DNA of 64,000 bases, from positions 5,441-69,440 of the forward strand of contig JBEKBD010000001.1 of NCBI GenBank assembly GCA_050015575.1, given 5' to 3'. A program made the translations under genes and the position numbers. The notes below the pieces were generated by a model. The model saw only the letters and a list, made by a program, of their open reading frames with translations, searched no databases and had not been told where the DNA came from. Source of the DNA: Roseiarcus sp. Lineage in GTDB: Bacteria > Pseudomonadota > Alphaproteobacteria > Rhizobiales > Beijerinckiaceae. This document shows positions 27,028 through 30,988 of the stretch, one piece after another (positions within the stretch are counted from its first letter, which is position 1; every line of letters starts with the position of its first letter).

Positions 27028-27474
27028 TTAGGCGGCGATTTTGTAATTTGATGGATCGGACCCATCAATGATGATTGGGGGCGTCTCTGCACTCTGGATG
27101 CACCAGCCGGCCACCTCCTTGACGTCTGGAGTATCTGGAAGTTTCAGCGCCTGAATCGTATGCAGCCGAACAACCGTCTCCGCGTTCGCATCAATCGGGC
27201 ACTCTCCGCGCTCCCACCGGCTAACGGCCAGCGCCTCCCTGTGCAGCATGTCGGCTAGCTGAGCCTGCGTCATGCCCATTTCAGTCCGCAGGAACCGAAG
27301 CTCCTTGCCATTCATTGAGTTGCGGCGGGTGACAATCCCATGGGCGATGGCCTTATGCAGTCCGTTGATATTACGGATGATAATGCACTCTTCGCCGGCA
27401 TCATCCATCGGGAAGTCGACTCCCACAATGGTGACATTGTCGAGCCCGCTATCCGTATAACGGTAGTTGGTCAT
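27028..27474 (-). CDS. XRE HTH protein, putative MqsA-like antitoxin
   Basis: MTNYRYTDSGLDNV...INGLHKAIA...NGKELRFLRTEMGMTQAQLADML...VSRWERGE. Immediately downstream of the DUF4258 gene. Confidence 0.8.
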   Translation of the reverse strand: MTNYRYTDSGLDNVTIVGVDFPMDDAGEECIIIRNINGLHKAIAHGIVTRRNSMNGKELRFLRTEMGMTQAQLADMLHREALAVSRWERGECPIDANAETVVRLHTIQALKLPDTPDVKEVAGWCIQSAETPPIIIDGSDPSNYKIAA

Positions 27475-27521
27475 CGTGTTTCCTTCTCCGTCTCACCCGT
27501 TACATTGCAATAACGTCTACG

Positions 27522-27902
27522 CTATCGTTCGTCAGCCCACATCACCGTCACAATTTTCATTTGGAACCTTTCTGAATCGGGGATCGCCACAACTCTCACA
27601 GTTCTAGATCCAGAATTCGGACTACGGCTAACCATACTATATTTGTAGAAGCCGGGCCTAGTTGACACTAACGGGTCGTCAAGCACGAATCCCTGCTTCA
27701 AGATATACAACACATCACCGGTAAACAGTTCCCGATCGGACATTTGGTCTAAGGCATGACGCGTCCAGATTACAGTCAGGCTCTCATCAAGAGACATCCT
27801 CCTAATCGAATCTGTCGCGTCAGCAGGGGTCCATGGTTGCGGCTTGAATGGCGGCTTCGCGATTTTCACCGGGTCTCGTCCACGCGAGTCACTTATCACC
27901 AT
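27522..27902 (-). CDS. DUF4258 family protein, putative toxin (RelE/MqsR-like RNase)
   Basis: WTRHALDQMSDREL...DVLYIL..G...PGFYKY...RTVRVVAIP...KIVTVMW. AT-rich codons (TTA, ATA, AGG). Start uncertain. Confidence 0.75.
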   Translation of the reverse strand: MVISDSRGRDPVKIAKPPFKPQPWTPADATDSIRRMSLDESLTVIWTRHALDQMSDRELFTGDVLYILKQGFVLDDPLVSTRPGFYKYSMVSRSPNSGSRTVRVVAIPDSERFQMKIVTVMWADER

Positions 27903-28270
27903 GATAGGTACTCGGCACACATAAACACTCAAAACGGTTAACGCAAGCCTAAACTCGGCATCCCTAAAAACTGACCCTTGACGTGAATTAGGACGCCCGC
28001 TCCTCCGACTTAAGACAGCGCCGTTTGCGCGACCTCCACACTCTCGCACCTTTCACCTTCCCCTCGCCACCAATCGCCGCCTTCGTCTTTGCGGTCTCAG
28101 CGCGCGGGTGATGCGCACCACGACAAATTCTCTCGCGTGTTCGTCATGTTGCTATCTCTAGTTCCACATCGAGTGAACTGGATAGCCTATCGATGGGAAA
28201 CGATATTGCTCCAACAAAATTCGGACGCCCCTTCCTCGCTTACGACGGCGGCCGACCGTCCGCGCCACCC

Positions 28271-28843
28271 TCACCTTCGCCCCGCCGTCACCCCGAGCAA
28301 CTCGCCGAGGCGGTCGAGCGCGACGCGCAGGCGGTCGGCGACAATCGCGTCGGCGCGCCAGGGGGTGACGATCTCGGGCGCGAAGGCGCGACAGTCGCTC
28401 AAACGGCCGCCCTCGATGACGATGCGGGTGACGATCGGCCAGGCGGCCTCGCCGACGCGCTCGGCGGCGGCGCGCATCTTGTCGCGCGCGTGAAGCGCGA
28501 TTTCGCTCGCCGGCAAGCCGGCGCGGGGCCCCGGCGCTTTGACCCCGACGACGTCGGTCGCCACCGCGCGCAAGCAATCGAGCTCGGCGCGCCGATGCAG
28601 GCGCCGCAGCGCCTCGCCGATCAGCCAGCGGATGTCGTTGAGCCTGGCGTCGTGCGGCGCCAGCGCGCGGGTCGAGCGCATCACGTCGAAGGGATCGAGC
28701 AGGCGGCGCGACGAAGCGCCGCCGCGCTCGGCGGCCTGGCCGCTTTCCCTGGCGCGAGCGAGCCGTTCCGGCGTGGCGTCGAGCCGCTCCGGCGCCGGCC
28801 GATCCCCGGCCTTCGATCGCCTCGCCCTCGGCTTGGCGGTCAT
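28271..28843 (-). CDS. DUF6456-like protein (phage/GTA late regulator, Q/GafA/GafZ-like)
   Basis: ...GEALRRL...ALHARDKMRAAAERVG...IVTRIV...LRVALDRLGELLG resembles DUF6456 by eye. ATGA overlap with the upstream gene. Confidence 0.6.
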   Translation of the reverse strand: MTAKPRARRSKAGDRPAPERLDATPERLARARESGQAAERGGASSRRLLDPFDVMRSTRALAPHDARLNDIRWLIGEALRRLHRRAELDCLRAVATDVVGVKAPGPRAGLPASEIALHARDKMRAAAERVGEAAWPIVTRIVIEGGRLSDCRAFAPEIVTPWRADAIVADRLRVALDRLGELLGVTAGRR

Positions 28844-29061
28844 TGCGCCAACTCCGCGCAGAGTTGCGCCGGCGACGTGCAGTACGAGGCGACCGGCTCG
28901 CCGGTCAGGCGCTGCGGGATGGCGACGCTCTTCAGCTTCACGTCGGCGGGCGGATGGCGATGGACGCGCTTGAGATCGCGAAGATGGGCGGCGCAGGCGC
29001 TGACGGCTTGCTGGCGCTCGGTCTCGGACCTCGACGGGCGGCGGCGACGGCGGGCCTGCAT
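28840..29061 (-). CDS. 73-aa hypothetical protein, first gene of the leftward operon
   Basis: SD AAGGA; stop overlaps the next start; C-terminal SYCTSPAQLCAE motif. Confidence 0.6.
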   Translation of the reverse strand: MQARRRRRPSRSETERQQAVSACAAHLRDLKRVHRHPPADVKLKSVAIPQRLTGEPVASYCTSPAQLCAELAQ

Positions 29062-29116
29062 CGGCTTGATCCTTCTTGCTGCGGAGAGCGAGGGCGGGGC
29101 CGACGGCCGGGCGTGC

Positions 29117-29131
29117 GTTCACTCTTTGTTC
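29117..29131. promoter_or_regulatory. LexA (SOS) box, alphaproteobacterial type
   Basis: GTTC-actcttt-GTTC, exact GTTC-N7-GTTC, overlapping the predicted start site of the leftward promoter. Confidence 0.7.
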
Positions 29132-29133
29132 TC

Positions 29134-29162
29134 ATTTTCTGAACGTCCGCATAATCTGTCAA
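29134..29162 (-). promoter_or_regulatory. Sigma70-type leftward promoter
   Basis: TTGACA (29162-29157)-N17-GAAAAT (29139-29134). Confidence 0.65.
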
Positions 29163-29209
29163 GAAATATTTCTGATTTTCATGATTGCATTCATTCTGAA
29201 AAGCAGAAT
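29136..29209. promoter_or_regulatory. Putative operator array of the CI-like repressor
   Basis: TTCTGA at 29137, 29170 and 29194. The third forms the perfect inverted repeat ATTCTG-N5-CAGAAT (29193-29209). Confidence 0.5.
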
Positions 29210-29218
29210 AAATGGCGC

Positions 29219-29806
29219 ATGACCGTCGATTGGATTCGCGACGCCCTCAAAGAGACCGGCAAGACCCGCAGCGGCCTCGCCCGCGCGCTCGGGCGTTCGC
29301 CCTCCGCCGTCACCGACCTCCTCAACGGCTCGCGCCGCCTGCGCGCCGACGAGATCGCGGTTGCGGCCGCCTATCTCGGCGTCGAGCCGCCGCGCTTGGT
29401 CGGCGGCGGCCGGGCGCCGGCGCCTAGCGGCAAGGTGCCGCTGGTCGGCTACGTCGGGGCGGGCGCGGTCGCCCATTTCTACGCCGACGGCCAAGGCCCG
29501 TTCGACGAAGTGAGCGCGCCCGATGCGGCGAGCGCGAAGACCGTCGCGGTGCAGATTCGCGGCCACTCGCTCGGCGCGCTGTTCGACAACTGGCTGGTGT
29601 TTTACGACGACGTGCGCGATCCGCCCGGCGACGACCTCACCGGGCGCATGTGCGTATGCGGCCTCGCGGACGGGCGCGTGCTTATCAAGGCGCTGAAACG
29701 CAGCCAGATCCCGGGGCTGTGGATTCTGCTGTCGAACGCCGAGGCGCCGATTTACGATGTCGTGCTGAACTGGGCCGCGCTGGTGCGCGAAATGCGGCCG
29801 CGGTAA
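29219..29806 (+). CDS. CI-like repressor: XRE HTH plus S24 peptidase-like domain
   Basis: N-terminal HTH (RSGLARALGRSPSAVTDLLNGSRRLRADEI); VPLVGYVGAG; AVQIRGHSL (Ser) and VLIKAL (Lys). No SD, probably leaderless. Confidence 0.85.
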   Translation: MTVDWIRDALKETGKTRSGLARALGRSPSAVTDLLNGSRRLRADEIAVAAAYLGVEPPRLVGGGRAPAPSGKVPLVGYVGAGAVAHFYADGQGPFDEVSAPDAASAKTVAVQIRGHSLGALFDNWLVFYDDVRDPPGDDLTGRMCVCGLADGRVLIKALKRSQIPGLWILLSNAEAPIYDVVLNWAALVREMRPR

Positions 29807-29815
29807 AGGCCTTTC

Positions 29816-30988
29816 ATGTCGGCAAAGCCCATTTCAGCGCTCGAAATCGCGCGCGCGCTGATCGCCTTTCCCTCGGTGACGCCGGCCGACGCCGGCGCGC
29901 TGCCCTACGTGAAAACGCTGCTCGCCGAAGCCGGGTTCGCCGCCGAGATCGTCGCCTTCGCCGCGCCGGGGACGCCTTCGATCGACAATCTCTACGCGCG
30001 GTTCGGCCGCGCCGCGCCGAACTTCGTCTTCGCCGGCCACACCGACGTCGTCCCGCCGGGCGACGTCGCGCGCTGGCGCTTCGACCCGTTCTCCGGGGCG
30101 GTCGCCGACGGCCGGCTATGGGGCCGCGGCGCCTGCGACATGAAGGGCCCGGTCGCCGCCGCCATAGCCGCCGCGTCGCGCTTCGTTGCGCGCGGCCCGT
30201 TCAACGGCTCGATCAGCTTTTTGCTGACCGGCGACGAGGAAGGGCCGGCGGTCAACGGCACGGTCAAGCTGCTCGAATGGGCGCGCGCGCGGGGCGAACG
30301 TTTCGACCATTGCCTGCTCGGCGAGCCGACCGCTGCGACCGCGCTCGGCGACACGATGAAGAACGGCCGGCGCGGCTCGCTGACCGGCCGGCTGACGCTC
30401 CTCGGCAAGCAAGGCCACGTCGCCTATCCCACGATCGCCGACAATCCGCTGCGCCGCCTCGCCGCGGTTCTCGGGGCGCTCTACGAGCCCGCGCTCGACG
30501 CGGGGACGCCCGCCTTCGAGCGCTCCAACCTCGAGGTGATCGGGGTCGACGTCGGCAACCCGGCGACCAACGTCATTCCCGCCGAGGTCCGCCTCGTCTT
30601 CAACGTCCGCTTCAACGACCGCTGGACGCCCGAGACGCTTGCCGCCGAAATCGAACAGCGCCTCGCCGCCGCGATGCGCGGCGCGGCTTACAAGCTCGCC
30701 TTCGACCCGACCAACGCCGTCGCCTTCGCCACGCCGACCGGCGCCTTCACCGATCTCGTCCAGCGCGCGGCCGAAGAGATCACCGGGCGGCGGCCGAAGC
30801 TGTCGACCGGCGGCGGCACCTCCGACGCGCGCTTCATCAAGGATGCTTGTCCGGTGGTGGAGCTCGGGCCGATCGGCGCGACGGCCCACGCAGTCGACGA
30901 GCAGATCGCGATCGACGAGCTCGAGGCGCTGTCGCGCGTCTACGAACGGACGCTGGAGCTCTATTTCGGTGCAAGCGAGCGCGGCTGA
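29816..30988 (+). CDS. dapE: Succinyl-diaminopimelate desuccinylase
   Basis: SVTPADAGA, FAGHTDVVPPG, GRGACDMKG, TGDEEGPA, GRRGSL, GKQGHVAYP, GGTSDARFI. Confidence 0.96.
   Translation: MSAKPISALEIARALIAFPSVTPADAGALPYVKTLLAEAGFAAEIVAFAAPGTPSIDNLYARFGRAAPNFVFAGHTDVVPPGDVARWRFDPFSGAVADGRLWGRGACDMKGPVAAAIAAASRFVARGPFNGSISFLLTGDEEGPAVNGTVKLLEWARARGERFDHCLLGEPTAATALGDTMKNGRRGSLTGRLTLLGKQGHVAYPTIADNPLRRLAAVLGALYEPALDAGTPAFERSNLEVIGVDVGNPATNVIPAEVRLVFNVRFNDRWTPETLAAEIEQRLAAAMRGAAYKLAFDPTNAVAFATPTGAFTDLVQRAAEEITGRRPKLSTGGGTSDARFIKDACPVVELGPIGATAHAVDEQIAIDELEALSRVYERTLELYFGASERG

Follow-up and report, generated by a model that had tools for sequence, protein, structure and literature searches.

The window, a 64,000-nucleotide stretch of a Roseiarcus sp. 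contig (assembly GCA_050015575.1, JBEKBD010000001.1, positions 5,441 to 69,440), carries a divergent control region from which a repressor gene is read on the plus strand and a two-gene operon on the minus strand. The repressor (29219-29806, +) is a 195-aa protein with an XRE-type HTH and an S24-like region, identified from Pfam matches and phage homology and resembling phage CI and RogA, and dapE (29816-30988, +) begins 9 nt after its stop codon. On the opposite strand, the first operon gene encodes a conserved 73-aa protein (28840-29061 including the stop, −), recognised by a GC3 of 0.89 in frame and by its conserved peptide (HLxDLKRAHGxPPxDV ... SYCTSPAQLCAEL), which recurs in about 45 loci, and the second encodes a 190-aa protein (28271-28843 including the stop, −) identified by profile-profile comparison as a divergent DUF6456 protein of GafZ/GafA type. 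The TGA stop of the 73-aa ORF overlaps the ATG of the 190-aa ORF (ATGA), and the two genes are a translationally coupled pair. Between the repressor and the operon lies a GTTC-ACTCTTT-GTTC direct repeat (GTTCACTCTTTGTTC on the plus strand; 29117-29131), which in the operon's sense orientation is GAACAAAGAGTGAAC and is the putative LexA operator considered here.

A scan of one genome per species yielded 69 related loci, nearly all from Roseiarcus-like MAGs, with the cultured Roseiarcus fermentans DSM 24875 and Methylocapsa sp. S129 among them. The repressor is adjacent and divergent to the operon in most of these loci, its 9-nt adjacency to dapE is kept in 55, and a small secreted peptide and yebC follow beyond the operon in about 24. 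This conserved synteny of dapE, repressor, operon, small secreted peptide and yebC points to a fixed chromosomal locus rather than a mobile element. A prophage or mobile-element reading is ruled out by the synteny together with the finding of no HK97 capsid, portal or GTA_TIM gene in this genome, an absence that is itself uncertain in a 3.0-Mb MAG of 178 contigs.

Several further features of the neighbourhood were observed. The dapE gene is possibly co-transcribed with the repressor, and this essential cell-wall precursor gene may receive read-through from the autoregulated repressor promoter. Downstream of the operon, a DUF4258 and HTH gene pair (27028-27899) is of low GC (47-55%) and has no counterpart in the 69 related loci, and therefore looks like a recent toxin-antitoxin insertion. 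In one 5.97-Mb contig (CAWAIS010000001.1), the whole switch occurs twice with identical upstream sequence (L035 and L071), one copy having a truncated repressor match, which reflects either duplication or an assembly artefact.

Kinship of the second operon protein with GTA activators

DUF6456 is a domain of GafA and GafZ, activators of gene transfer agents (GTAs; PMC9638019, PMC9765227), and GafZ acts as an anti-terminator with a sigma-like HTH (PMC11150451). The initial annotation had called the operon DUF6456-like, and family matches to PF20057 and profile alignment both bear this out as a remote relationship. The 190-aa protein itself had no match in Pfam or NCBIfam. In an exhaustive search, PF20057 (DUF6456) was the only match in 13 of 21 family members, one of which, a distant one, scored above the curated cut-off, and the orthologues within the genus matched weakly (E 2e-4 to 7e-3). 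When the 190-aa family was aligned by hhalign with the canonical DUF6456 proteins found in its GTDB family, the probability was 98% (E 2.8e-13, 168 columns). BLASTP found no similarity between the 190-aa protein and the canonical DUF6456 protein, the kinship being visible in profile comparison only. Judged from these profiles, the 190-aa protein is homologous to DUF6456 and falls outside the curated family.

Structural searches added little to this assignment. The AlphaFold model of the 190-aa protein is all-helical (pLDDT 75), a sequence search of the PDB returned no match, and a Foldseek search of the model against the PDB returned none at E <1, with sigma-28, ECF sigma and sigma region 4 appearing among the insignificant matches only. 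The protein had no match in the phage collection, and the operon proteins showed no similarity to the Cro-side genes of the Mesorhizobium phage whose repressor is discussed below. Similarly, the 73-aa protein had no Pfam or NCBIfam match and no BLASTP match to the canonical 289-aa DUF6456 protein, and kinship with GafY or DnaA domain IV was not found.

Across 41 genomes of the GTDB family, GTA_TIM was present in 35 and a canonical DUF6456 gene in 31, usually 16-30 kb from GTA_TIM. Within the genus, a canonical DUF6456 gene was found in 0 of 21 genomes, where the weak matches fell exclusively on orthologues of the 190-aa protein. This orthologue and its operon were present in 18 of the 21 and constitute the sole DUF6456-type protein of the genus; GTA_TIM was present in 10. 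The operon is the genus's version of a gafZ-type regulator, retained with or without a GTA cluster. In five genomes of the same genus (G041, G046, G047, G050 and G054), GTA_TIM is split into two to five pieces, which means either that the GTA cluster is decaying or that these long-read MAGs contain indel errors.

Promoter context, SOS motif and conservation of the box

A promoter scan identified one sigma-70-like promoter within 28000-29900, TTGACA-N17-GAAAAT on the minus strand, with the -35 hexamer TTGACA at 29157-29162 and the -10 hexamer GAAAAT at 29134-29139 (10 of 12 positions matching, versus 0.1 such promoters expected). The direct repeat lies downstream of the -10 on this strand with a gap of 2 nt and therefore spans the predicted +1. 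The perfect match claimed in the initial annotation at 29117-29131 was thus confirmed in the sequence, and its claimed position directly past the -10 and over the transcription start agrees with the promoter scan, the start being a predicted one. The third element of that claim, that GTTC-N7-GTTC is the LexA site of Alphaproteobacteria, follows the published SOS box (PMC3323433; a Caulobacter consensus is given in bioRxiv 10.1101/2025.01.26.634973) and fits the presence of the motif at recA, lexA, uvrA/ssb and imuA-like genes of this genome.

As a bare pattern, GTTC-N7-GTTC occurs at chance level, with 3 copies in the window against 2.2 expected (at least 3 in 39 of 100 shuffles) and 110 perfect repeats across the 3.0-Mb genome. 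The functional case is therefore built on the extended motif, the promoter context and conservation. The lexA (contig C2) and recA (C144) genes, located with NCBIfam models, each have a sense-oriented GAAC-N7-GAAC box upstream, and the same motif in the same orientation also occurs at uvrA/ssb, the imuA-like gene, comM and a radical-SAM gene related to spore-photoproduct lyase. An extended SOS motif, GTTC-N4-TTTGTTC, has 10 copies in the genome compared with 0-3 for composition-matched control patterns, and the box at 29117-29131 fits it; the other copies lie in promoter-like DNA of lower GC by recA, uvrA/ssb, the imuA-like gene, the radical-SAM gene and several toxin-like genes. For example, the box of the imuA-like promoter (GAACAAAGAGCGAAC) is nearly identical, and the promoter has the same layout of -35, N17, -10, 2 nt and box. 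With a matrix trained on six canonical SOS sites, from which the 29117-29131 site was left out, the box ranked 22 of about 6 million positions with a score of 17.7, compared with at least 22 for the clearest SOS sites. This lower score is due mainly to flanking bases, the first repeat having no preceding T.

Strong SOS boxes were also observed before toxin-like genes that share an N-terminal region (C63:15154, C18:24703, C101:7328 and C12:20640). One SOS-boxed toxin-like gene has a CDI-toxin EC869-like nuclease domain, with a HEAT/DUF2019 gene nearby, and polymorphic toxin or immunity genes seem to be part of the organism's SOS regulon.

Conservation of the box was assessed over the 62 loci with sufficient upstream sequence. 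The box proved to be conserved where the genes are: a perfect sense-oriented GAAC-N7-GAAC lies between the repressor and the small ORF in 51, and a box with one mismatch occupies the same position in seven more. In two close Roseiarcus MAGs (L041 and L047), the -35, the -10 and the TTCAGAA repeats are kept and the LexA box is lost; these would be natural single-lock variants. In an alignment of 49 distinct intergenic regions, conservation reached 95% or more for TTGAC, for the -10 (in the form AAnAT) and for each of the GAAC tetramers, with variable spacer and downstream DNA. The box is kept down to 47-53% identity of the DUF6456-like protein (L073 and L074), and its presence in perfect form in both cultured relatives makes the prediction testable.

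The box also accompanies the operon where the arrangement of the locus differs. In six loci (L073, L027, L034, L023, L024 and L068), a gene on the operon strand intervenes and the repressor lies about 1.5 kb from the boxed promoter. In L073 this gene (L073:1414-2061) encodes a LuxI-type autoinducer synthase (Autoind_synth, 2.3e-42), and with luxI inserted between repressor and operon the box remains with the operon. The insertion is reminiscent of the quorum-sensing control of gafA in Rhodobacter. A role of the box in regulating the repressor gene was considered and ruled out, as the repressor -35 follows the box only after about 55 nt and the box moves with the operon when luxI intervenes.

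Boxes of the same kind occur beyond the genus. Of about 28 canonical DUF6456 genes examined in other genera of the family, 8 have a perfect sense-oriented box at the 5′ end, compared with about 0.02 per locus expected from the genome-wide rate of perfect boxes, and such a box was also found at one distant homologue. In the boxed canonical genes (loci L079, L080, L084, L087, L089, L091, L092, L093 and L109), the ATG of the longest ORF often lies within the box (GAACATATCATGAAC, giving M-N...), which suggests leaderless, LexA-covered starts for the boxed canonical genes.

The divergent repressor and its candidate operators

The HTH of the repressor is recognised by HTH_31 (1.1e-7) and HTH_3 (6.6e-6) in Pfam. 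The match to Peptidase_S24 (PF00717) is sub-threshold in the repressor itself (E 0.086) and recurs in 11 of 20 orthologues at E <=1 (best 0.0025), always over residues 74-173. Over its full length, the repressor is 46% identical to the immunity-region repressor gp11 of Mesorhizobium phage vB_MseS-P1, and CI-type repressors from other phages share 27-32% identity with it; this full-length CI homology supports a probable S24 domain. The motifs VPLVGYVGAG, RGHSLG and LIKALK fall in register with IPVMGRIAAG, RGDSM and LKRLRR of the organism's own LexA in a local C-terminal alignment, which scores only about 3 standard deviations above shuffles. Within these motifs, G80-A81-G82, G115-H-S117-L-G and K157 are invariant in 58 repressor orthologues (75-95% identity). 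The invariance of Ala-Gly, S117 and K157, together with their register with LexA, upholds the earlier observation that the local repressor keeps the Ser/Lys residues that RecA-stimulated self-cleavage would need. BLASTP of the repressor against the same LexA gave nothing useful, single-sequence and profile searches of the PDB gave HTH matches only, and the AlphaFold model of the C-terminal domain is unreliable (pLDDT <50).

A putative repressor promoter, TTGCAT-N17-ATAAAT (29185-29213, +), was read from the sequence and is absent from the promoter scan list. As it ends 5 nt before the ATG, the repressor mRNA is probably leaderless. Three repeats found by repeat search lie in and around the two promoters: a palindrome, ATTCTG-N5-CAGAAT (29193-29209), within the repressor's own promoter, which is conserved as TTATTCnGCTTTTCAGAA in close relatives; a TTCTGA-type repeat (29168-29181) just upstream of the operon -35, in which ATCAGAAAT is conserved; and a TTCTGAA repeat (29135-29146) that overlaps the operon -10 and spacer, a position at which orthologues conserve a TTC(A/C)GAA motif. 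These three conserved TTC(A/C)GAA-type repeats are candidate operators of the local repressor, suggested by the repeats themselves.

A proposed double lock, its alternatives and its relation to known systems

The arrangement is best explained, at rather better than even confidence for the explanation as a whole, by a LexA operator that covers the predicted start site of a strong sigma-70 promoter and by a second, CI/RogA-like repressor acting on the same GafZ-type operon, both probably relieved by RecA. LexA bound over the start site would repress the 73-aa/DUF6456 operon, and the local repressor would probably bind the TTC(A/C)GAA-type repeats over the operon -10 and -35 and in its own promoter, so that expression of the operon would require both cleavage of LexA and removal of the local repressor. 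Such a double lock, including repressor binding and self-cleavage, is plausible from sequence features. As the local repressor keeps the LexA-type Ala-Gly and Ser/Lys residues, activated RecA is the likeliest trigger for both repressors. If so, both inputs would carry one and the same signal, and the promoter would work as a threshold or delay filter and not as an AND gate that combines independent cues. LexA is cleaved faster than CI-type repressors, and the repressor pair would thereby respond to DNA damage only past a threshold or when it persists. The DUF6456 protein of the operon is a divergent member of the GafZ/GafA family, whose members activate and anti-terminate GTA genes.

The most serious competing account, itself unlikely, accepts LexA control of the operon and has the neighbouring repressor answer some other cue, growth phase or quorum sensing for example, and stay uncleaved when RecA is activated, so that the promoter would integrate DNA damage with a second, independent signal. 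RogA, which is relieved by a stationary-phase-linked stimulus and lacks catalytic residues (PMC9632790), offers a precedent, and the LuxI-type autoinducer synthase gene directly upstream of the boxed promoter in loci such as L073 and the high divergence of the local S24 domain are in keeping with it. However, the invariance of Ala-Gly, Ser117 and Lys157 in 58 orthologues would be hard to explain had cleavage been lost, and the closest phage relative, at 46% identity, is the immunity repressor of a temperate phage. It is less probable still, and would be surprising, that LexA is the sole repressor of the operon and that the HTH-S24 protein controls no more than its own gene and dapE, or acts on genes at other sites. 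The candidate status of the local operators, the position of dapE 9 nt after the repressor in 55 loci and the distance of about 1.5 kb between repressor and boxed promoter in six loci would suit this arrangement, but three conserved TTC(A/C)GAA repeats bracket and overlap the operon -35 and -10, and in nearly all loci the repressor is the divergent neighbour of the operon, matching the precedents of CI/PR and RogA/gafYZ.

A more basic objection is that the direct repeat is no LexA site at all and either arose by chance or serves another factor, as it would if the operon products regulated their own synthesis. The chance frequency of the bare pattern, the mid-range matrix score and the loss of the box in two loci fit this idea, which is nevertheless very improbable given that the tetramers are invariant and the spacer variable across about 50 distinct loci, that the motif, orientation and promoter layout are those seen at recA and the imuA-like gene of the same genome, and that boxes recur at canonical gafZ-type genes in other genera.

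The closest known counterpart is found in Caulobacter, where RogA represses gafYZ (PMC9632790). As in the Roseiarcus locus, an HTH and S24-like repressor acts there on the core promoter of a two-gene operon whose second gene encodes a DUF6456 protein (PMC9632790, PMC11150451). In contrast to the invariant Ala-Gly, Ser and Lys residues of the repressor described here, RogA lacks catalytic residues (PMC9632790), and cleavage is thus not a rule of the family; the stimulus that takes RogA off gafYZ seems to be linked to stationary phase (PMC9632790). The two systems also differ in that rogA and gafYZ are unlinked in Caulobacter (CCNA_00080 versus CCNA_01111-2) and adjacent and divergent here, in that no LexA box has been reported at gafYZ whereas one lies on the operon start here, and in that RogA sites are GGAA-N4-TTCC whereas the candidate repeats here are of TTC(A/C)GAA type. 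GafY has a DnaA domain IV fold, a similarity the small first gene of Roseiarcus does not share, and the Caulobacter switch controls the C. crescentus GTA, whereas no GTA cluster is detectable in this genome.

Two phage systems provide further parallels. The rstA promoter of CTX-phi is repressed by LexA together with RstR, the repressor of the phage itself, in the account given in PMC3323433. There too, a LexA site of the host and a local repressor of phage type act within a single divergent region, the operators of the local repressor being candidates in the Roseiarcus case, and induction requires both cleavage of LexA and loss of the local repressor, as would the double lock proposed here. 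CTX-phi belongs to the filamentous phages, its host is a gammaproteobacterium, and RstR is not a self-cleaving S24 protein; in contrast, the present switch occupies a fixed chromosomal locus without phage genes, and its local repressor looks cleavable. The immunity region of lambda (CI, PRM, PR) similarly has divergent promoters with several operator-like repeats between them, an HTH and S24 repressor and, as is probable here, a leaderless repressor mRNA. Unlike lambda, the Roseiarcus locus has no Cro, integrase or structural gene, the operon in the rightward position encodes a GafZ-like regulator, and an extra putative LexA operator covers its start site.

With respect to the SOS response, the box agrees with the described one in being a GTTC direct repeat with a 7-nt spacer within a promoter. 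The described core SOS regulon contains no regulatory operons of GTA-activator type, whereas such an operon is the putative target here. GTA production in Rhodobacter depends on LexA through an indirect and unclear route (PMC9638019), and in Dinoroseobacter, LexA sites are predicted in the GTA cluster and not at gafA (PMC6473078). The literature searched yielded no mention of a LexA box at either gafA or gafYZ.

The broader proposal, that in the Roseiarcus clade and in the part of the wider family whose canonical gafZ-type genes have LexA boxes as well, DNA damage directly licenses a GTA-activator switch through two RecA-sensitive repressors, namely LexA over the start site and a RogA-like CI repressor, still cleavable, over the -35 and -10, is put forward tentatively and at less than even confidence. 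It specifies a testable wiring, in which DNA damage activates RecA, activated RecA removes two repressors and their removal turns the activator on. If true, it would directly connect the SOS response with GTA induction, a connection that has been missing. Where the GTA cluster has been lost, the switch would remain as an orphan regulator, gated by SOS and acting on other genes, and its persistence in genomes in which no such cluster is detectable suggests that this regulator family may have targets beyond GTAs.
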